The notes under the pieces are model-generated. The model was not told the DNA's origin and did no database searches. It saw only the letters and a list, made by a program, of their open reading frames with translations. DNA of 64,000 bases from an uncultured Methanoregulaceae archaeon. Lineage in GTDB: Archaea > Halobacteriota > Methanomicrobia > Methanomicrobiales > Methanospirillaceae. The DNA lies in contig CAVTTL010000001.1 in assembly GCA_963737635.1 (NCBI GenBank), positions 512,001 to 576,000 on the forward strand, written 5' to 3'. Of the stretch, positions 2,277 to 24,254 are shown piece after piece. Every line of letters starts with the position of its first letter. The first letter of the stretch is position 1. The position numbers and the translations under genes are program-made.

Positions 2277-2912
2277 TCAGCCGAGCTTGCGTTTTGCGGC
2301 CAAGATCCGGTCTTTGAGGTCGCGAGCAGCTTCGGTAATATCCGGTTGCCCAACCACTGCTGAGATCACAGCAACCCCGTCGGCACCTGATGCTATAACC
2401 TCTCCCACATTATCGCGACTGATGCCGCCTATACCAATGACCGGTATCGACACTGCTGCCCGGATCTTCCGCAATGCTTCCAGGCCGTACCCTGGCCCGG
2501 CACCACTTTTGGACGATGTCGCAAAGACAGGGCTCACGGCAACATAGTCTGCCCCCCCTGATTCAGCTGCAATTGCTTCACCGACATTCCCGACGGAGAC
2601 GCCAATCACAAAAGGGCGGGGCGCAATCTGTCGTGCTACGTTTATCGGGAGATCCTCCTGCCCCAGATGAACCCCATCGGCCCCGCAGGCAAGCGCAATG
2701 TCCAACCGGTCGTTTACAATAAAGAGGGTTCCGGTCTTTTGGGTGATTATTCGGATCTCACGTCCGGTACTGCAAAATGCCCGTGTGCCGCAGCGTTTAT
2801 CCCGGAGCTGAATCGCATCTGCTCCCCCATCGCACGCAAGGCGTGCAATCTCCGCGTGGGTTCGTCCTGTGGCAATCACTTCATCCGTGATTACATAGAG
2901 ATCGAGATCCAT
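2277..2912 (-). CDS. thiE: Thiamine-phosphate synthase
   Basis: LYVITD, QLRDK, IVNDRLDIALA, GVHLGQED and IGIGGI motifs; adjacent to thiM. Confidence 0.95.
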   Translation of the reverse strand: MDLDLYVITDEVIATGRTHAEIARLACDGGADAIQLRDKRCGTRAFCSTGREIRIITQKTGTLFIVNDRLDIALACGADGVHLGQEDLPINVARQIAPRPFVIGVSVGNVGEAIAAESGGADYVAVSPVFATSSKSGAGPGYGLEALRKIRAAVSIPVIGIGGISRDNVGEVIASGADGVAVISAVVGQPDITEAARDLKDRILAAKRKLG

Positions 2913-2922
2913 AACCCCACGT

Positions 2923-3723
2923 TCAGCCGGATTTTACCCGCGCACCTGCCAGAACATCCTTTGGCGTGAGTGCCGCCATCTCATCGAAGAGTGCCACCTT
3001 AAAAGAGCCGGGACCCTGGCTTTTTTCTGCTGCCCGTTCTCCTGCAAGCCCAAAAGCGGTAAGAGCGGTTGCCGCTGCCGTCACCATATCCCCGTTTATC
3101 GCTGCGCAGACCCCGGTCACCGAGGTCGCCATGCACCCGGTTCCGGAGAGCGTACCCATCTTTGAATGGCCGTTTTCCACGAGGAGGACGCGTTTTCCGT
3201 CCGTGACTATATCGGTTGCACCGCTCATTACGATAGTGATTCCCGTATCGCGGGCAAATGTCCGGGTAACATCCACCGGATCGCCCTTTAACCCCGCCGA
3301 ATCGACGCCTCGCACCTTTGCATCCACACCGGCAAGCACTCCGATCTCCCCGGCGTTTCCCTTGACGATGGCAATGTTCAATTCGTCGAGAAGGCGCTTT
3401 GTACTCTCCGTCCGGAGCCGTGTGGCTCCCGCACCAACCGGATCGAGGATGATTGGGATCTTGCGTTCGTTCGCCATGTTCCCGGCGAGGATCATGCTCT
3501 CGATAATCCCCGGATTGAGCGTCCCGATGTTTAAGACGAGAGCACCCGCAAAGCCTGCCATCTCTCCTGCCTCTTCCCAGGCATCGGCCATCACCGGCGC
3601 CCCTCCGGCGCAGATAGTGATGTTTGCGCAGTCATTAACCGTCACGTAATTCGTTATATGGTGGACAAGGGGGTGATGCTCCCTTGCCCGGGAAAAGATA
3701 TCGGAAAAGACCTGGGAATCCAT
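2923..3723 (-). CDS. thiM: Hydroxyethylthiazole kinase
   Basis: [33 protein letters not shown] and GTGC motifs. Confidence 0.95.
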
Positions 3724-3842: not shown

Positions 3843-6485
3843 TTACCGCGTGAGCTCTTCCAGAGTGGCCACGAGCAGGTCGATTTCTTGCCGGGTGTTG
3901 TAATAGGCAAGACTTGCCCGCACCGTTCCGTCAGGGAGGCCGAGGCTTTCTACCAGCGGTTGGCAGCAGTGGTGGCCTGACCGCACCATAATATCTGCTG
4001 CCTCGTCGAGCTGCTGGGCCACTTCGTGAGGGTGGAACCCATCAACCGTGAAGGAGACCACCCCGATCCGGTGTGCCGGATCCTGCGGGGCATATACGTG
4101 AACACGATCGTTCCTGGCGAGAGCGGCGATCAGCCTATTGGTGAGATCCGTCTCGTACCGGTGGATCTGTTCCATCCCGATCAGATGGAGGTAGTCCACT
4201 GCAGCGCCAAGACCGATGCCACCCGCAATATTGGGTGTCCCCGCTTCGTACTGTTGGTAACCCTGCGCCGGTGTGAATCCATCAGAGGTGACCGCCTCGA
4301 CCATGCCACCGCCAAGCACGAGAGGTTCGATACAAGGCTCCTTCATCCAGAGTACACCCGTTCCGGTCGGCCCGGACATCTTATGGCCCGAGAAACAATA
4401 GAAATCACACCCGAGTTCCTGTACGTCCACCGGCAGGTGCGGGACAGCCTGCGCTCCATCGACAAGAAGGCGCACCCCATGATCATGGCAGATCCTCCCA
4501 ATCTCCTTCACGGGGGTAACCGTACCAAGTACGTTTGATGCCTGCGTAACAGCAACGAGACGCGTCGAATCGGTAATCGCTTTTTCCAGAGCAGTAATGT
4601 CGAGCGTATACTCCGGGGTGATGCCGACGATATCCGTGGCGACATCTTGACGGGCGAGACGGCGCCAGGGAAGGAGGTTCGAGTGGTGTTCGAGGATAGT
4701 GGTGATCACCCGGTCGCCGGGCTTCCAAGTGAGCCCCCGTGCAACCATATTAACTGATTCAGTCGTGTTCTTGGTGAAAACGGTGACCCCGTTTTTCCCG
4801 CCAATAAATTCTGCGATCTTCTCATGGGCATGCCAGTACCGCTGGCTTGCAATGCTGGTGAGCCGGTGGACCCCTCGCCCCACGTTTGCCCGGTACCGGT
4901 GCTCGAATTCGACCATCGCGGCTACAACAGGTTCCGGGGAGAAGCTGGTCGCCGCATTGTCGAGATAGATAATATCGCCGAGAATGGGAAAGTCGCGGCG
5001 GATAGCTTCCACGTTATATCTCCCGATCTCCTGTATTGCCATATCCGGTTCCATGATTCTTTTTCCTGCTATTTCAACCGTCTCTTCTCTTTCTGCGGGT
5101 GGTTCTGCCTGCAGGGTATAATCATCCCGTACTGGTATGCCCCGGTCACGGCAGAGCTCGCGCATCTTTGGCGGTAGGGCCCGCCAGCGCCAGAGACCCC
5201 ACTGGTGATAAGCGTCAGGCAACCCTCGTTTTTTTGCGTAGGCCACCAAAAACGCGTCCCAACGCTTGGCATAGTCCGGGTGCATAGATCTAAGCTCTTC
5301 GTACTCGCTTTCAAGCATGGATGGGCAGACATAGCACCCAATCCGTTCGATCCCCCGGTCGTAGAGCGAGTTTATTTCAGCCTTCTGCCACCAGAGGTAA
5401 AGAAAAACCTCAAGAGCTCTCCAGTTCCTTATCGGTGAGATATTAAGCTGGAGAGGGTTTGCCGGGTTCTGGCTCGTCTCTTCAAGCGCTGCCCGGTTCC
5501 AAGACTCATACCACCGGTTACCCTGCACTGTGACGCAGGGACCCACCTCGGCAAGATGAAGCTTGAGGGGCCGGAGTTTCAGGAGTTTGCAACACCACCG
5601 GTTATCCTTTCCCGGGGGCCCGGCTTTTTCTGCCGCTGAAAAGAAATCCCCTGCTTTTTCTATAACGGGAACTCCTTGCGATCTCACGAATGCAACCGTC
5701 TCAGGAAACTCAATGCCGGTATCGAGGAAGAACGCATCGGTTACCCCTGCTTTGCGTGCGAGCGTCAGTACAGCGGTACTGTCTTTTCCCCCCGAAAAAG
5801 AAACATTGCATACCGGCCGGTCGTGGATATGCTGTTTGATCATCCGGATCGCGTTCCGTTCAAGATTTTTTAAATGATACCGGTTCTGCCGGACAACCTC
5901 CGCCAAGTCCGGGTTCCTGCCAGTACGGAGATCAACCGGTGCCAGTTCCCTGACCCGGACATAACCGTCTTTGACAGTCCCGGTTCCGAACCGGTTTTTG
6001 AGTTGCACGATCGCCGTACCGTCAGGCACCGAGTGCAAGAGTCTGAACTTCTTGCCCCCCATGCGTCCTCCACCATGCCCCGGTTCGATACCGGTGCCAA
6101 GGTCGATCACCCCGGCAGTCACATGCTTGAGGATAAACGGCAGTGCCTCCGGGGAAAGATCGAACGAGAACTTCCGGGTAACCGGATCGAAGGAGAGCCA
6201 GCCGAAACGGTGACCGTGTGCGATCACGAGATCTGCCCGGTCCAAGCCGCCAGTCTTGTTGAGCAGGAGGACGGTCTGGACGGGTACGTTCCCGAACCGT
6301 TCCCGCACCAGCCTTTTTATGAGGGCCATGTCAGCCGCAAGCGCCGGGCGTACGTCGTACGGCTGAAGAAGTTCAATCTCCCGTCCCTCCGCACCGCAGG
6401 CACAGGTCCTGCCAATCAGCGGGACATTGCACCGGTCGCACCAGTAGAGAATCTTTTTTACCGGCGGCTCATGCGTCACACTCAC
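3843..6485 (-). CDS. Fusion of a PAPS/APS-reductase-fold [4Fe-4S] PP-loop domain and a SufS-type cysteine desulfurase
   Basis: N-terminal CxxC..CxC ribbon, SFSGGKDS, RWCCKLLK and RIGCYVCP; C-terminal IYLDNAATS, EHHSN, SGHKM (PLP lysine) and RSGHHCCQP. One 880-aa ORF. Confidence 0.9.
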   Translation of the reverse strand: MSVTHEPPVKKILYWCDRCNVPLIGRTCACGAEGREIELLQPYDVRPALAADMALIKRLVRERFGNVPVQTVLLLNKTGGLDRADLVIAHGHRFGWLSFDPVTRKFSFDLSPEALPFILKHVTAGVIDLGTGIEPGHGGGRMGGKKFRLLHSVPDGTAIVQLKNRFGTGTVKDGYVRVRELAPVDLRTGRNPDLAEVVRQNRYHLKNLERNAIRMIKQHIHDRPVCNVSFSGGKDSTAVLTLARKAGVTDAFFLDTGIEFPETVAFVRSQGVPVIEKAGDFFSAAEKAGPPGKDNRWCCKLLKLRPLKLHLAEVGPCVTVQGNRWYESWNRAALEETSQNPANPLQLNISPIRNWRALEVFLYLWWQKAEINSLYDRGIERIGCYVCPSMLESEYEELRSMHPDYAKRWDAFLVAYAKKRGLPDAYHQWGLWRWRALPPKMRELCRDRGIPVRDDYTLQAEPPAEREETVEIAGKRIMEPDMAIQEIGRYNVEAIRRDFPILGDIIYLDNAATSFSPEPVVAAMVEFEHRYRANVGRGVHRLTSIASQRYWHAHEKIAEFIGGKNGVTVFTKNTTESVNMVARGLTWKPGDRVITTILEHHSNLLPWRRLARQDVATDIVGITPEYTLDITALEKAITDSTRLVAVTQASNVLGTVTPVKEIGRICHDHGVRLLVDGAQAVPHLPVDVQELGCDFYCFSGHKMSGPTGTGVLWMKEPCIEPLVLGGGMVEAVTSDGFTPAQGYQQYEAGTPNIAGGIGLGAAVDYLHLIGMEQIHRYETDLTNRLIAALARNDRVHVYAPQDPAHRIGVVSFTVDGFHPHEVAQQLDEAADIMVRSGHHCCQPLVESLGLPDGTVRASLAYYNTRQEIDLLVATLEELTR

Positions 6486-6564: not shown

Positions 6565-6813
6565 TTATTCTTGACTCCCGGCCTCTGCAAGGGCTGAACG
6601 TATCTGTTCTTTGACATCATTTGAAATATCAAGGCTGTCCAGTGCCCGCAAGAGGAGAAGCCGAGCCATCTGCTGGCCCCCGGGAGTTGCGAGGTATGAG
6701 TCGATGGCCTCTTTTCCCTGATGAGAGGAGAGAAAGGATCGGATCGCATCCTGTCCTTTCGGAGAGGCAAGATATTCTGCAACCATTCCCTGAATGCCCT
6801 CAAGTACGCTCAT
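6565..6813 (-). CDS. Small hypothetical protein with short helical repeats (YLASPKGQ / FLSSHQGK / YLATPGGQ)
   Basis: 82-aa ORF with protein-like composition and a three-fold internal repeat. Confidence 0.65.
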   Translation of the reverse strand: MSVLEGIQGMVAEYLASPKGQDAIRSFLSSHQGKEAIDSYLATPGGQQMARLLLLRALDSLDISNDVKEQIRSALAEAGSQE

Positions 6814-6885: not shown

Positions 6886-7514
6886 TCAGGTAGGCAAAAA
6901 AACGTTGCCAGCCCCGTCAGTACTCTCCGGCACAGGTATACAAACTATTTTTTCGTTTTTAACCCGGGCGCGGTGCTCGGCTACCATCTCGCCGCAGACA
7001 GCACACGGGACCGATTTGGAGATCCGTGCTTTTTCAAGGATTTCCGACCTTGCTTCTCTCTCTATGAAAAGCGCGCCAATCGGGATCGTGAGGATCTTTT
7101 CGGTGATGGCAGCCTGGCGCTCGTTGAACTCTTGTATTTTGTCCGGCGTCGCTTTCCCGGCCATCACTCCTCCGCGCAATCCCGATATCACTGGATCGAT
7201 CCGTTCAGTCAGGGGATCACTAGACTGGACAAGCCGTAATGCCGCGCCGGTACTGAGGCTGATGAACGTGTATGCGTGTTTGCCCAAATCGGGGAGGATC
7301 AGGTTTCCCTTGCTAACAGAACATCCGGTGATAGCCTGCATGGCATCAATCCCGCACGCATCGTTCTCGACAATGGCAACTAAGTTCTCATTATCGGATC
7401 GTTCGCATGCAGGCAGTGAGAGCATGTCTGGCTGCCCGGACCTAATGCAAGACCGGGACAGGAATGGCCATGGAAGGCAACTGCATCGTCGTAAGTCTGA
7501 TAGTGGCACGTCAT
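6886..7514 (-). pseudogene. FmdE-family (formylmethanofuran dehydrogenase subunit E-like) gene, multiply frameshifted
   Basis: FHGHSCPGLALG in one frame; LVAIVENDACGIDAMQAITGC and C-terminal CAVCGE...CIP in another. Several indels at ~7410-7445 and a disrupted 3' end. Confidence 0.8.
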
Positions 7515-10550: not shown

Positions 10551-11291
10551 TCACGCTGCTGTAATTCTGTCATAAAAAAGCGCTGCGGTCACGGCTCCAC
10601 AGACGGGACCGATTACATAGATCGGAAAGTACTGCCAGAGGTTTGCACCGCTAAGCAGCCCTTCCATAAGGTACGGCCCGAACGTTCGTGCCGGGTTGAT
10701 AGATGAACCGGAGATATTACCGGCCATCGTGATCATCCCGGCGACAGTAAGCCCGATTATGAGCCCGGCAAATCCCGGCGTGGCCTGCCGGTCTACCGCG
10801 ACACCCATGATCACAAGCATGAGGACAAAGGTTGCCATGCCCTCGATAAGGATTGCCTGCCCGTACCCGATTCCCGGGAATGGTGCAGTGGCGCCAAGCC
10901 CGCCAACCGTGACCGCCTGTGGCCCGAGCGTCAAAAACAGGAGCAGGCTTCCTGCCGCGGCGCCGATGCACTGCGCAACCACATAGGCAACGGTATCACC
11001 GGCAGGAAACCGTTTTGTCGCCCATAATGCAATGGTCACCGCCGGGTTAATATGGGCACCGGAGACCCGGCCGAGCGCGTAGATCACGGCGGCGACCACG
11101 ATCCCGAACACAAGACCGATAGCAAGCCAGTCGCCAAGCCCCCCCAGCTGCCCTATCCCAACATTAAATGCCGTCGCGGGCTTGGTACCTGCTGCAATCA
11201 GCAGCGTGATCACCACCGATCCCGTCCCGAAATAGACCAAAAGAAGTGTGCCAACCCCTTCCGCAAGGCAGCGGGACGAGAGCGAGGCCAT
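10551..11291 (-). CDS. aqpM: MIP-family channel (archaeal aquaporin AqpM-like)
   Basis: Two NPA boxes (SGAHINPAVT, SSINPARTFGP) and six TM helices. Confidence 0.92.
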   Translation of the reverse strand: MASLSSRCLAEGVGTLLLVYFGTGSVVITLLIAAGTKPATAFNVGIGQLGGLGDWLAIGLVFGIVVAAVIYALGRVSGAHINPAVTIALWATKRFPAGDTVAYVVAQCIGAAAGSLLLFLTLGPQAVTVGGLGATAPFPGIGYGQAILIEGMATFVLMLVIMGVAVDRQATPGFAGLIIGLTVAGMITMAGNISGSSINPARTFGPYLMEGLLSGANLWQYFPIYVIGPVCGAVTAALFYDRITAA

Positions 11292-11503
11292 TACTTCCCC
11301 TCCTGGTACGCTTCACTGCAGTCAGGACAGAGCATCCGCGGCATCTTTTTGGGCAGCTTGCGGGAAGGGAGCGGATACCCGCCCTCCCAGACATCAATCT
11401 CTTTCCGGATTGTATGTTTCATGCAGGTGGCCATACCGCAAACTATGCAGACGGCCACAGCATCCGCATCCTTTCCCTCTCTCGCACATATATAACACTT
11501 CAT
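11291..11503 (-). CDS. DUF2180-family small Cys-rich protein
   Basis: MKCYIC...AVAVCIVCGMATCMKH...LCPDC; its stop overlaps the aqpM start; GGTGA RBS upstream. Confidence 0.8.
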   Translation of the reverse strand: MKCYICAREGKDADAVAVCIVCGMATCMKHTIRKEIDVWEGGYPLPSRKLPKKMPRMLCPDCSEAYQEGK

Positions 11504-11523
11504 TATCATCACCTTGTCTGGGA

Positions 11524-13024
11524 TCAGACCGCGTCTTTCCACTGGCAGGCGCAGTGCCGGAAGTCCATCAGAGCGGCAGATGCGCAATCCTTGCAGATCC
11601 GGGCGGGCGCGGCAGCGACAGTCTTGTTTAGGGCAATGATGTTTGTCATCAGAGTCGCAGTGACCGGCTCGCTCGTGAGCAGGCACGGATAGTCGGCAAG
11701 ACGCATCATTGCCGAGAACCGGACCGTCATCGCACAGGCCGGGTAAGCGTACCGCTGCGGGTTTGCAATGACCTCATTTTTTAGGATCGGTGAGAGATCC
11801 ACGTCAAACCCGCCAACTTTGGGCGTAAGTGCCCCGGGGGTTCCTGCCTTCATCCGGCGGGCTTTATCCACGAGTTTCCAGCCCCGGTACACCATGTCCA
11901 TGAAGTCACAGTTGTGCAGTTCGATGGCGGCCCCGCGCTTCGGGTACAGCTGGACATAGTTGTGATAGCGCTTGGTGAGCAGGTCCACAACCATGATCGC
12001 ATTGAACCCGTCGAGTTCGAGCAGGTACTCGGCAGCGCTCGCCGATGCCCCGGTCGCAAGCGAAAGCACTTCGGTCTCATTCTTGATCTTTGGCGCCGCA
12101 GCATGAAGGGTCGTGTCCATCACTTCAGTCACCGATTCAATCACTGCCATGATCACGTCGTCCTTGCACATGTTGTATGTAGACTGAGCGATATGATGAG
12201 CGATATCGCCAACGCAGTACGCCGGCACCGTGACAATGTTACCGTAGTGGACATCATCATCGATTGCAGCCCTGACTGTTCCTTTCATCTTCGTGCGGTA
12301 ATCCTTCATATACTTCCGGCAATCAAACGAGGACTGGCCCACGCTGTCCATGAGTTTTGCCTGAGCCTTGACCGGTGTCTCGTAGATGGACTGGATCATG
12401 GCGACCTCTTTTTTTACTGCGTCTGCAAGGGTCGCACCACTTTCGACTGCGTGGGCAAAGATATCCCCTATTCCGTAGGAGGTGTTCATGCCCCACGACT
12501 TTGCAGCAAGGATCGCCTGCTTGTGGGCGACCGGGATCTCCGTATTCTTCAGGATCTGGTTAACAATGTTGCTGCTGCTGCCCGGGATCAGGGCAAAGTC
12601 CACGACGCAGGTAGGGCCATAGAAGCCCGCATAGCGCCGGGCCGATTCTTTTCCTATCAGGGCTTCGGCTTTTCCCACAGCAACAACAAACGTATCCACG
12701 CTCTTCCTGAACGCCGGGTCCTCGTCACAGAGGAGCTCCATGATGACCGGCGTCTGGTAATGCTCGACAAAGGGATCGTCCTCGGGACGGATCGTTGTAG
12801 TGAGGCTTTTGAGGATCGCGTAGTGAGCGTTGACCGAGTCCATGTGAAGAGCAAAGACAGACTTTGCTCTGGGCGCCAGCCGGTTTCATACCTTTTATTG
12901 CATCAACATAGGCCTTTGTGTCATCAATGATAAATTCCTGTCCGCGCTTCTTTTTTATCTGGTTCACGTCGGCGTGCTGGGCAGCCATCGCCTCAGCGAT
13001 CATCTTTTTTACTATTTCCTGCAT
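11524..13024 (-). CDS. DUF2193-family protein (one frameshift near 12855, probably a sequence error)
   Basis: N-terminus (KKMIAEAMAAQHAD) in ORF 12725-13024 continues into ORF 11524-12843 (DDPFVEHYQTP, GFYGPTCVVDFA, YPACA, C-terminal CKDC). Confidence 0.8.
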
Positions 13025-18683: not shown

Positions 18684-19817
18684 TTACACCGGGAGCGGCA
18701 TCTTCGTCGCCTCCATATTCTTTTCCATTTCAAGGATCTCAGCCAGATGAGCCTTTGTGGACGGCCCTTTTGGTACGGCCTTGCAACCGGTTGCTTTGCT
18801 CGTGGACTCCCCATAGGTACCTATCTCCCGGGCGATCGCTATCGCATCTGTCTTGTCAAACCCGATGAGAGGGCGGTAGACCGGGATTTCTGCCGAATCT
18901 GAGAGAACAACCAGATTATCGAGAGTTTGGCTTGCGACCTGTCCAAGTGATTCGCCGTTCACGATACCCTTAGCCCCGACTTTCTGTGCGACAGCCTGCG
19001 CAATACGGTACATCCGGCGTTTACAGAAGATGCAGGTGTACTTCTCCTGCCGGTTTGTGATCAGTTCCTTTTTTGCTGCCGCCAAGTATGGATCGCGTAT
19101 CACCCGGAGCCGGATATCGGGCTGGTACTTTCGCAGCACCTCCACTACCCGTTCGGCCCGGGCAAGCACGGTCTCGTCGAGGAAGGTGTCCAGCGCGACA
19201 AAGATCGGCACGATCCTGCAGCCCCGTTTCATCATCATCCACGCCGCGACCGGGGAATCGATACCTCCCGAGACAAGTGCAACGAGCGTCCCTTCGACCC
19301 CGAGCGGGAGGCCACCGGCTCCTTTTATCACCGTATCGTAGAGGTAGCACTCATCCTGCCGTATTTCGACATGGATCTCGACATCCGGGGCAGCAAGGTT
19401 CACCCTGATATGGGGGAATGCCTTCCGGACCACATCACCGAGCTCAATCGCTTTATCGTTTGATGAAAAATTGTGCTTTCCTACTCTTTTAATGCGCAGC
19501 GCAAACGTCTTTGCCTCGGGAATGCCATGTGCCCTGCTGTATTCGATAACCGCTGTTTCAAGCGGTACGTCACGAGGGACATGTTCGATTTCTGAAAATG
19601 AAACGATCCCAAAGACATGCCTGAGTTTTTCGGGATCGAGATCGCCGGTGATCCAGATTCTGCCGCGTTCGCTTTTTATCTTCAGGTCCGGGATTATCTC
19701 GCGGATGTTGTTTATCAGGACACATTCCCACTGCCGGCGCACCGGGTCCGATTTCAGGAAGATCTCCGAGTACCTGACCAGCCATTTCTTTGTCATGTTC
19801 ACATTCCTGTCCGACAC
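18684..19817 (-). CDS. thiI: tRNA 4-thiouridine synthase ThiI (THUMP + PP-loop)
   Basis: VRYSEIFLKS, GGLPLG, LVSGGIDSPVA, CIFCKR, GESLGQVASQT and RPLIG motifs. Confidence 0.93.
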   Translation of the reverse strand: MSDRNVNMTKKWLVRYSEIFLKSDPVRRQWECVLINNIREIIPDLKIKSERGRIWITGDLDPEKLRHVFGIVSFSEIEHVPRDVPLETAVIEYSRAHGIPEAKTFALRIKRVGKHNFSSNDKAIELGDVVRKAFPHIRVNLAAPDVEIHVEIRQDECYLYDTVIKGAGGLPLGVEGTLVALVSGGIDSPVAAWMMMKRGCRIVPIFVALDTFLDETVLARAERVVEVLRKYQPDIRLRVIRDPYLAAAKKELITNRQEKYTCIFCKRRMYRIAQAVAQKVGAKGIVNGESLGQVASQTLDNLVVLSDSAEIPVYRPLIGFDKTDAIAIAREIGTYGESTSKATGCKAVPKGPSTKAHLAEILEMEKNMEATKMPLPV

Positions 19818-19850
19818 TAACTCAGGCCTTTTTCCGAATTGGGGAGATTT

Positions 19851-21332
19851 TCATGGTGTCTGCCTCCCGACCAGGGTGCTGATAGCATCGCTCGTAATGA
19901 GCCCGATAACATGCTCTTCATCATCAATGACCGGCAGCGCCGAGATAGAATGAGCTTCCATCTTCCGGGCCGCCTCCTCAACAGGCTCCTTTTCGGTAGT
20001 TGTGACCACATCGCGGCTCATAATCTCATCGAGCCAGAGGAAGTTGGACGCAACCGCCTTTGCGATATCCCACGAAGTGACTATTCCCACGAGCTGGCCG
20101 GTGGCGGAAAGGACCGGGAGGTGGTTGACGCTGCAGTGGATCATCCGCCGGGCGGTGACCGCGATCGTAGTCCCCTCCTCGATGCACTCAACATCCTGGG
20201 TCATTACGTCGCCAACGACCGTATGGGAGAGGAACCTTGTGATCAGGTAATTGAGCTGACCGGATTCAAGAAGGAACGCGTCATGGCCGTAGTTGGAGCG
20301 GATTTCACAGTAATGCACCTCGCGCTCGTTTGCAGTGAGTGCCGTCACGATCTCCTGCGACTGGTAGGGAGGGTAGAGCCAGTCCGAAGTGACTGAGATA
20401 ATAAAGAACGCCGCTTTTGCAGCCGAAAGTCCGGTTGTGAGCGAACCATCCTTTGTCAGATCGAAGTAATCGATAGCTTTTGTGATATAGAGGTACGAGT
20501 TTGCATCAAATCGTTTGGTGAAAGTATCCCCTTGGTGGTGGAGGTAACTCTCCACGGCAAACTCAGTGGAGAAATCAAACCCGACATGGTCTTTTTCCTG
20601 AAGTGCCCTCCCGAACTTTGTGTGCATTGATTCATCGGATAGATACGTGATGTGGCCGACCATTCGTGCCAGCGCAAGGCCGTGCGTGGGAACCCGTTTC
20701 CCATAATAATCCCCGTTATTCCAGTCGGGGTCGGAAATGATGGCTTTCCTACCAACCTCGTTGAAAGCGATCTGCTGGGGTGTTGAGTAGCCGGTCGTGG
20801 CAATCACGATCGCCTTTTTGATCATCGACGGATACGAGATCGTCCATTGGAGCGTCTGCATCCCTCCCATCGACCCCCCGGCGACTGCGTAAAGTTCGGA
20901 AACGCTGAGATAGTCGAGAAGAAGTTTCTGAGCGTTGACCATGTCCCGGATGGTAATGACCGGAAAAGTCGTACCAAAAGGTTTGCCGGTCTCAGGGTTG
21001 AGTGACGAAGGGCCGGTTGATCCCTTGCACCCCCCCAAGACATTGCTGCAGATCACAAAATAGCGATCCGTGTCGAATGCCTTACCGGGCCCGACAACGG
21101 CGTCCCACCAGCCGGGCTTGTCTTCTCCGTCATGAAACCCGGCTATGTGGGCATCGCCAGACAGAGCATGGCAGATGAGGATTGCGTTGCTCTTTTCCTT
21201 GTTGAGCCTGCCGTAGGTCTCGTAGGCGATTGTCACGTGGGAGAGCACCTCGCCGCTTTCAAGGGTGAGTGGCCCTGCGAGGTCGGCGTGTTCTGTCCTG
21301 ACAATGCCTAGAGAGCCACGGAGCATATTCAT
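19851..21332 (-). CDS. metX: Homoserine O-acetyltransferase with a C-terminal CBS pair
   Basis: AYETYG, CHALSGD, GGSMGG and GHDAFL motifs, followed by two CBS domains. Confidence 0.93.
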
Positions 21333-21335
21333 ACT

Positions 21336-24160
<2,825 letters not shown>

Positions 24161-24174
24161 GGTAACAACCACAA

Positions 24175-24245
24175 AGCCAGAACCCGGAATCGAACCGGGA
24201 TACGCTGATCTGCAGTCAGCCGCGTAGCCTTTCCGCCATTCTGGC
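24175..24245 (-). tRNA. tRNA-Cys(GCA), canonical archaeal type (G1-C72, G37, U73)
   Basis: GCCAGAA-TG-GCGGAAAGGCTACGC-G-GCTGA-CTGCAGA-TCAGC-GTAT-CCCGG-TTCGATT-CCGGG-TTCTGGC-T folds into a full cloverleaf. Confidence 0.95.
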
Positions 24246-24254
24246 ACTAGTCGT

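Follow-up and report, generated by a model that had tools for sequence, protein, structure and literature searches.

A candidate RNA sulfur insertase in Methanomicrobiales: a PAPS-reductase-fold [4Fe-4S] protein fused to a cysteine desulfurase

A gene on the reverse strand at positions 3843..6485 of a 64,000-nucleotide stretch from an uncultured Methanoregulaceae archaeon (contig CAVTTL010000001.1, positions 512,001 to 576,000; the whole stretch is referred to here as the window) raises the question of what chemistry is served by a protein that joins a 3′-phosphoadenosine 5′-phosphosulfate (PAPS)-reductase-fold domain to a cysteine desulfurase of the SufS type. Database names call it a PAPS reductase or an aminotransferase. 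The evidence described here moves it to an uncharacterised family that extends from methanogens to Asgard archaea, and nothing points more clearly to the chemistry of that family than the SufS covalently attached in Methanomicrobiales. We infer, with a probability of about one in two, that the gene encodes an enzyme which inserts sulfur into RNA, probably tRNA, at the expense of ATP and by way of a [4Fe-4S] cluster, and which carries its own supply of cysteine-derived sulfur. Domain logic, invariant catalytic residues, homology to BrxP (a DNA-phosphorothioating protein of bacteriophage exclusion (BREX) type 4) and the replacement of a ferredoxin by a desulfurase together suggest ATP-dependent, cluster-mediated sulfur insertion, and a PUA module points to RNA as the target. 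Sulfate reduction and a role in DNA phosphorothioation defence are both unlikely. The open reading frame (ORF), in which a second in-frame GTG lies two codons downstream of the start, is laid out as follows; residue numbers are those of the 880-residue protein, and the abbreviations are AF2, AlphaFold2; pLDDT, predicted local distance difference test; PLP, pyridoxal phosphate.

3843..6485, (-): whole ORF, 880 amino acids, GTG start, stop codon included
6372..6452, (-): zinc ribbon, residues 12-38 (C16, C19, C28, C30), from motif positions, alignment and strands in the model
6120..6359, (-): pre-PUA alpha/beta domain, residues 43-122, from the AF2 model (pLDDT 93) and VIA-align
5928..6119, (-): PUA-like domain, residues 123-186, with an invariant R141-x-GGK145 loop, from VIA-align and sequence matches in relatives
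5286..5909, (-): PAPS-reductase-fold PP-loop ATP-pyrophosphatase domain, residues 193-400, from Pfam, VIA-align and Foldseek
5778..5795, (-): PP-loop SGGKDS, residues 231-236, from motif and conservation
5589..5594, (-): C298-C299 of RWCC (296-299), predicted [4Fe-4S] ligands, aligned with the CC pair of the solved structure 2goy
5325..5336, (-): C384-x-x-C387 of GCYVC (383-387), predicted [4Fe-4S] ligands, aligned with the CxxC of 2goy
5121..5285, (-): helical subdomain closing the N-terminal part, residues 401-455, with a conserved GLWRW, from the model and alignable to BrxP
5019..5120, (-): flexible, poorly conserved linker, residues 456-489, of low pLDDT and variable in orthologues
3846..5018, (-): group II (SufS/CsdA-type) cysteine desulfurase domain, residues 490-880, from TIGR01979 and Protein Data Bank (PDB) matches
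4380..4382, (-): K702, PLP-binding lysine in SGHK (699-702), invariant in 34/34 fused orthologues
3966..3968, (-): C840, persulfide-forming catalytic cysteine in RSGHHC (835-840), invariant in 34/34 and aligned with the HHC of 5b7s

Within this protein Pfam places PAPS_reduct at residues 226-389 (E 1.6e-31) and, in the same frame, Aminotran_5 at residues 506-871 (E 1.2e-122). The elements on which the original prediction was built were all found in the ORF: a zinc ribbon (C16xxC19...C28xC30), SGGKDS, RWCC, GCYVC and RSGHHC motifs, an in-frame SufS domain and the lack of an ECGLH tail, a motif scan having returned no ECG or CG[LI]H anywhere in the 880 residues. Conservation was counted in a 129-row alignment of the family. 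S231, G232, G233 and S236 are kept in 129/129 rows and the K and D of SGGKDS in 128/129; C298 and C384 are likewise kept in 129/129, C387 in 128/129, and C299 in 116/129, being otherwise T, S or N. R296, K303, R324, E327 and S328 are present throughout (129/129), and the four zinc-ribbon cysteines in 119-124 of the 129 rows. Since C299 is substituted in part of the family and BrxP has a single cysteine at this place, some members and BrxP would have only three cluster cysteines, which is the pattern of [4Fe-4S] clusters that carry sulfide on a free iron. The zinc ribbon would not be indispensable, because one fused orthologue (L035:7995-10619, genome G150) has lost two of its four cysteines, the ribbon being reduced to WCVEEN...CAAG.

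To which family does the N-terminal half belong? Profile comparison assigns its 455 residues to the uncharacterised pan-archaeal family PRK13795 and not to CysH, the assimilatory reductase. The best match of residues 11-455 is the NCBIfam model PRK13795 (PRK13795.1-1, "hypothetical protein"; profile positions 36-511 of 667, E 4e-116), and the score of 389 bits falls below the cut-off of 745 because the last 150 positions of the profile, a C-terminal segment and a ferredoxin, are missing in the protein. Zinc ribbon, a probable PUA module and PP-loop core with CC...CxxC are common to the protein and the family, inside which it branches; the difference is that the C-terminal 2x[4Fe-4S] ferredoxin of the family is replaced here by SufS. 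An exhaustive HMMER search with residues 1-470 found 266 representatives at E ≤ 1e-30 and 2334 at the looser threshold of E ≤ 1e-3; lengths of 600-700 amino acids predominate among the best 150. When 18 representatives were scanned with Pfam, PAPS_reduct was present in 18/18, PUA in two (7e-16 and 4e-4), and C-terminal 4Fe-4S dicluster domains in 11/14 of those with at least 600 residues. Ferredoxin motifs occur in 48 of the 97 rows scanned for them, all 48 outside Methanomicrobiales. Hosts of PRK13795-type proteins are Methanosarcinales, Methanotrichaceae, Methanoperedens, Methanomassiliicoccales and other Thermoplasmata, Thermoproteota, Nitrososphaerota, Nezhaarchaeota, Thorarchaeota and Promethearchaeota, and the Atlas neighbours are archaeal PAPS_reduct clusters throughout, with PUA on 82-97% of sister-cluster members. 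No characterised member or known function was found in a search of the literature outside subscription journals. One ferredoxin-type member on a long branch (L103:3391-5316) comes from a contig of a metagenome-assembled genome labelled Campylobacterales bacterium; among 80 loci no other record is non-archaeal, and contamination or gene transfer may account for it. A Methanomethylophilaceae member of 1039 amino acids (L090:3938-7057) has about 400 extra residues after the ferredoxin with no Pfam match.

An AF2 model of residues 1-470, built from the 129-row alignment, reached a pLDDT of 93.1 and a predicted template modelling score (pTM) of 0.93. It gives the order zinc ribbon (beta strands at residues 12-38), pre-PUA domain, PUA, PP-loop core and helical subdomain. 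Residues 200-395 match PAPS-reductase-fold domains, including a FAD-synthase PAPS domain and APS/PAPS reductases (APS, adenosine 5′-phosphosulfate), at VIA-align Z 13-14 (8rom, 4bwv, 7lhr, 2goy) and Foldseek E ~3e-9. Model residues ~38-185 match nine PUA-containing PDB entries with Z from 8.1 down to 5.3, the best being the Thermoplasma PUA protein 1q7h (Z 8.1, 122 residues) and the Nip7 homologue 2p38 (Z 8.0), with 2cx1, RsmF, YebU, MCT-1 and eIF2D among the others. We did not accept a fold Z near 8 by itself as proof of a PUA domain and used it only jointly with sequence matches in relatives. Taken in this way, the mutually consistent fold matches and the sequence matches in a paralogue, homologues and sister clusters support the presence of a PUA module in the N-terminal part.

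Over their whole length the C-terminal 390 residues can be aligned with group II desulfurases (SufS/CsdA), including the PLP lysine and the RxGHHC cysteine, and match 5b7s (3e-103), B. subtilis SufS 5xt5 (8e-99) and E. coli SufS 1jf9 (3e-87). They differ from these enzymes in scoring under the SufS cut-off (TIGR01979, 417 bits vs 475.1), so that they appear to form a SufS-like but divergent subfamily, and in being fused to a presumed acceptor. Catalytic residues of both halves are kept in 34/34 fused orthologues. In the same orthologues the linker varies in length and sequence, and in a full-length AF2 model the pLDDT is below 50 at residues 463-488 and the whole-chain pTM is 0.55, which fits two rigid bodies on a tether.

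The fusion is a real gene, neither a chance event nor the assembly artefact that had been raised as an objection to it, because the best 120 clusters at 90% identity are all full-length (876-913 amino acids, at least 99% query coverage, 70-87% identical) and all carry PAPS_reduct and Aminotran_5, on contigs of up to 1.7 Mb; the names on these clusters are Methanoregula or Methanomicrobiales. We then considered 201 sampled genomes of the class, from six families. A match to the protein at E ≤ 1e-20 was present in 201/201, and the fused form is the usual form of the gene in Methanomicrobiales. Among the matches listed, a single alignment spans both halves in about 135 genomes, both halves lie in one open frame of 929-997 amino acids in seven further genomes, and the N-terminal part stands alone in frames of 471-529 amino acids in G029, G099, G116 and G074. 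The SufS half matched 173/201 genomes at E ≤ 1e-90; of the matches listed, 24 lie in frames of 376-584 amino acids and all others in frames of 843-1120, and a few of the 24 are truncated fusions, interrupted by the end of a contig or by an internal stop (G081, G017, G189). The two halves are unlinked in G030 and G056. In G013 (C2:317395-319946) they are separate adjoining genes on one strand with a 48 bp gap, which reflects a frameshift or else a naturally split fusion. Two fused genes were read through a stop codon, one in-frame TAG in G189:C62:20262-22895 and one TGA in a second fused copy, G064:C45:9178-11733; these could be pseudogenes, sequencing errors or cases of recoding. The fusion itself is already in print: a 2024 survey (PMC11237513) has a Methanomicrobiales-exclusive cluster of CysH fused to SufS ("CysH-SufS"), filed under sulfate assimilation and, in the part of the survey that deals with it, accompanied by no functional work.

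A quick IQ-TREE analysis of 97 N-terminal parts, with rows chosen by PP-loop and W[CS]C motifs and a length above 380 amino acids (loci lacking a qualifying ORF, such as L043, L082 and L083, are omitted), gave two deep branches, with one paralogue of this genome in each. Orthologues of the fused gene form one Methanomicrobiales clade of 44 rows (Shimodaira-Hasegawa-like approximate likelihood ratio test 100), with fused forms across six families. In this clade 35 rows have SufS by a motif test, L030 and L072 (880 and 912 amino acids) are clearly fused, and seven are unfused. As the unfused rows are mostly nested within fused ones, they point to secondary loss, and as all neighbouring clades bear ferredoxin, SufS replaced the ferredoxin once, early in the order. 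The fusion is thus old and retained. The second paralogue of the genome falls in a 17-row branch with Thermoproteota, Asgard archaea and some Thermoplasmata. It has 470 amino acids (G000:C1:1868777-1870189; L001:778-2190, +) and the same zinc-ribbon, PUA, PP-loop and CC..CxxC build with neither ferredoxin nor SufS, it matches TIGR00451 at 7e-12 and a universal archaeal PUA protein model at 1e-13, and it is followed by a hisH-like gene.

Of the characterised proteins, BrxP is the one most closely related to the core. Among the PADLOC models of defence proteins, BrxP scores 119 bits (residues 193-435), SspD 35 bits and DndC 22.9 and 18.6 bits, no DndC stretch passing on its own, so the likeness to DndC seen at the outset turned out to be weak. 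The BrxP model is matched solely at its PAPS-domain positions 98-371. A tblastn search of plasmids with the core gave 13 records, and those ranking highest by query coverage x identity include a Methanosphaera plasmid whose gene heads an annotated BREX-4 locus with brxP, a 1186-residue "hypothetical" gene that by its position is probably brxC, pglZ and brxL. This BrxP is 31% identical to our protein over 271 residues (E 7e-30), and VSFSGGKDS, RWC, GxRxxES, PIxxW, GCxxCP and the helical tail are common to both. In Pfam it shows PAPS_reduct followed by a Fer4 dicluster and, last, DUF4007; the dicluster ferredoxin after the PAPS core is as in other PRK13795-family members, and BrxP, too, works with a cysteine desulfurase. 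The differences are that BrxP ends in DUF4007, which Pfam does not find in the 880-residue protein, whereas the latter has the N-terminal zinc ribbon and PUA; that BrxP has one cysteine where our protein has CC; that SufS is covalently attached here; and that BrxP sits in a mobile-DNA locus with pglZ and brxL, while the present gene is core and chromosomal and lacks such partners. According to PMC12914056, a host with SufS needs no more than brxP and brxC for DNA phosphorothioation, and DUF4007 is a domain of the SspB type, and PMC12839542 describes a ferredoxin-like region in BrxP and a cysteine desulfurase in BREX-4.

How might such a protein work? RNA would be docked by the zinc ribbon and the pre-PUA/PUA module, and the PAPS-reductase-fold domain would spend ATP, through SGGKDS, to adenylate a base carbonyl or a backbone phosphate oxygen. 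The [4Fe-4S] cluster on C298/(C299)/C384/C387 would then bring sulfide beside the activated site. SufS, on its disordered linker of ~35 residues, would make a persulfide on C840 from free cysteine by means of PLP-K702 and hand it to the cluster site. In the ferredoxin-ending members of other archaea, sulfur would presumably come from sulfide or from a free desulfurase. With SufS in the place of the ferredoxin, the Methanomicrobiales fusion may act as a "Rosetta stone" that names sulfur insertion for the pan-archaeal family. If true, this would also indicate how methanogens without SufE/SufU might couple a group II desulfurase directly to its acceptor.

Several observations weigh against an RNA sulfur insertase with a dedicated donor. 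To our knowledge, the characterised nucleic-acid enzymes of the PAPS-reductase family all act on DNA and not on RNA. The search for a PUA or other RNA-binding fold proposed in the original prediction yielded nine PUA-type fold matches and PUA sequence in relatives, but the Pfam PUA model has no match in the 880-residue protein at E ≤ 0.01, and, according to the tool, fold Z values close to 8 can also be reached by unrelated models. At its pTM of 0.55 the full-length model gives no fixed domain arrangement. As for the sulfur supply, SufS is indeed fused, but the proposal of a self-contained enzyme holds only in part. The N-terminal part persists in G029, G099, G116, G074 and G010, in which a SufS orthologue was not found (best match 30-37% identical), and at least 17 of the 24 short-frame matches to the SufS half are free SufS paralogues of 60-63% identity, often alongside the fusion. 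The notion, taken from five genomes, that SufS exists in the order only as a fused domain was dropped when the wider search gave these paralogues. In addition, in a neighbourhood survey of 100 loci and 1173 ORFs, no RNA-modification gene was a conserved neighbour. Recurring neighbours in Methanomicrobiales are sulfur users (FdhD in 13 loci, ThiM in 12, ThiE in 7, NifS-NifU in 6, ThiI in 3), and since FdhD, NifS-NifU and ThiI represent other sulfur acceptors, SufS may be a general rather than a dedicated donor.

If RNA is nevertheless the substrate, which modifications could be made? The genome also encodes two ThiI, an NcsA-type thiolase, NifS-NifU and another desulfurase; with the known thiolases accounted for in this way, the two PUA-PAPS paralogues would represent an extra activity. 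TtuA, NcsA and TtcA resemble the protein in combining zinc fingers with a PP-loop ATP pyrophosphatase fold and a catalytic [4Fe-4S] cluster; their substrate is tRNA. For TtuA (Foldseek E 2e-7) and NcsA (6scy, Z 9.6) the likeness is at the level of the fold only. These thiolases differ in belonging to the ATP_bind_3 family (PF01171), which the protein does not match at E ≤ 0.01 in Pfam, in their cysteine pattern, and in having neither PUA nor fused desulfurase. Candidate targets are the orphan archaeal tRNA thiolations, 2-thiocytidine 17 (s2C17) and 2-thiouridine 33 and 39 (s2U33/39). Supplementary Table S2 of PMC7668247 lists the enzyme as "unknown" for s2C17 in M. maripaludis, P. furiosus and T. 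kodakarensis and for s2U33 and s2U39 in M. maripaludis, and no enzymes for them were found in the literature outside subscription journals. A phosphorothioate in the RNA backbone has also been reported, its writers being described as unknown in a review (PMC8341892). It is conceivable, though rather doubtful, that the PUA/PAPS-reductase/[4Fe-4S] family writes those archaeal RNA sulfur marks for which an enzyme is still missing. In one version it may make s2C17, s2U33 and s2U39; in a bolder version, suggested by the homology of the core with BrxP, it may make a housekeeping RNA backbone phosphorothioate. The report of this backbone mark has reportedly been contested. If the bolder version were true, BrxP would be a DNA-directed offshoot of an ancient RNA-modifying enzyme. 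The gene would thus offer a candidate enzyme for the orphan thiolations or for the disputed phosphorothioate, as well as an evolutionary source for a phage-defence enzyme.

Alternatively, the protein could be what its database names and the 2024 survey make of it, an assimilatory APS/PAPS reductase (CysH) joined to an enzyme of cysteine metabolism. Pfam assigns it to PAPS_reduct, the filing under sulfate assimilation in PMC11237513 agrees, and the P. aeruginosa APS reductase 2goy is the best solved-structure match both by sequence (2.4e-6) and by fold (Z 13.7), its CC...CxxC [4Fe-4S] ligands and the lysine after CC aligning with RWCC/GCxxC. However, 2goy has a degenerate P-loop (SFSGAED) where the family has the canonical SGGKDS, and assimilatory [4Fe-4S] APS reductases have a C-terminal catalytic ECGLH and no PUA, zinc ribbon or desulfurase. 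In our protein the N-terminal part ends in the helical subdomain and then the linker where CysH would have its ECGLH tail, the zinc ribbon and PUA domains would play no part in sulfate reduction, and the CysH/APS-reductase models of NCBIfam stay below their cut-offs (TIGR02055, 52.6 vs 235.3 bits; PRK02090, 52.5 vs 154), BrxP scoring about twice as high. The earlier view that this is no thioredoxin-type APS/PAPS reductase is therefore upheld by the canonical PP-loop, the absence of ECGLH and these scores, and we regard a CysH function as highly improbable. A DNA phosphorothioation enzyme, whether a DndC+DndA-like or a BREX-4-like epigenetic or defence module, would agree with BrxP as nearest characterised homologue and with the match of the DndA and SspA models to the SufS half (E ~1e-54). 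Set against this, the 15 neighbouring ORFs include no DndB/D/E, SspB/C, BrxC, PglZ or BrxL-like gene, in accordance with the initial remark that dndBDE genes are missing nearby; only PAPS-domain positions of BrxP are matched; and a PUA module takes the place of the DNA-side DUF4007. Presence in 201/201 sampled genomes marks a core gene, unlike a defence gene, and compares with the 0.6-4.3% of genomes given for dnd, ssp and brx clusters in PMC12914056. That a core gene of the order has no adjoining Dnd, Ssp or BREX partner argues against DNA phosphorothioation, which we likewise consider very improbable, and for RNA. The initial suggestion of nucleic-acid thiolation or phosphorothioation thus stands in so far as BrxP, the characterised protein to which the core is most closely related, inserts sulfur into nucleic acid, but its DNA branch is argued against.

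Other explanations keep the chemistry or the RNA and give up the other. The core might adenylate and thiolate a cofactor, metabolite or protein at a carboxylate or carbonyl, as LarE does, with a possible link to thiamine, Mo/W or methanogen cofactors; the PUA domain could then serve oligomerisation or regulation, and PUA domains do occur in non-RNA enzymes such as glutamate 5-kinase. Consistent with this, thiM-thiE lies directly downstream here and in other Methanoregula; ThiM, FdhD (a Mo-cofactor sulfurtransferase) and ThiI occur in 12/100, 13/100 and 6/100 loci overall; and LarE and [4Fe-4S]-LarE are among the fold matches (Z 8-9). However, conservation of these neighbours extends neither to the whole family nor to the whole order, and co-transcription with thiM is not evident, the 119-bp gap before it holding a T-run and an AT-rich box. 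In addition, the PUA-type matches are all RNA-associated (Nip7, MCT-1, eIF2D, RsmF, YebU) and the nearest characterised homologue acts on nucleic acid, so that we judge a substrate other than nucleic acid to be unlikely. Somewhat less likely still is an RNA-modifying enzyme that inserts no sulfur, for example by amination or ferredoxin-fed reduction, with SufS building or repairing its own Fe-S cluster. Most family members do have a ferredoxin, an electron carrier, in the position of SufS, the title of one reference says that DndA assembles the Fe-S cluster of DndC, and PP-loop enzymes also aminate, TilS, GMP synthetase and NAD synthetase being among the fold matches. Nevertheless, BrxP, DndC and SspD all insert sulfur, all with a cysteine desulfurase, and a general NifS-NifU pair is already available in the genome for cluster assembly. 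Compared with these explanations, sulfur insertion into RNA is the reading that we prefer.

The 15 neighbouring ORFs in the window are housekeeping genes. Downstream of the fusion gene come thiM (2923..3723) and thiE (2277..2912), both on the (-) strand. Adjacency to thiM-thiE recurs only in Methanoregula and a few relatives, with thiM nearby in one further genus (g12), and was not seen in the other families sampled. Across the 100 loci no neighbour is conserved family-wide, and the largest neighbour family occurs in just 13. Upstream lie an 82-residue ORF with no Pfam match (6565..6813, (-)), followed by a T-rich stretch, because of which the fusion gene probably has its own promoter, and an FmdE-family protein with a DksA/TraR-type zinc finger (6886..7509, (-)). 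In several Methanomicrobiales families FdhD adjoins the fused gene in varying orientation (L025, L027, L028, L032, L033, L042, L061, L066, L069, L071), and in the present genome it is located at G000:C1:436293-436964, between NifS-NifU and the NcsA-type thiolase; its placement seems to follow any cysteine desulfurase that happens to be present. Elsewhere in the window, genes for DUF2193 (439 amino acids) and DUF2180 (131 amino acids), archaea-specific domains of unknown function, overlap at 11291-12843 (-) beside an aquaporin-type MIP gene. About 12 kb from the fusion gene there is a run of sulfur-metabolism genes (window 18684-24247, (-)):

18684..19817, (-): ThiI
19851..21332, (-): MetX-like hydrolase with CBS domains
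21336..22742, (-): Cys_Met_Meta_PP enzyme of the O-acetylhomoserine sulfhydrylase type
22796..24247, (-): SepSecS/SepCysS-like protein

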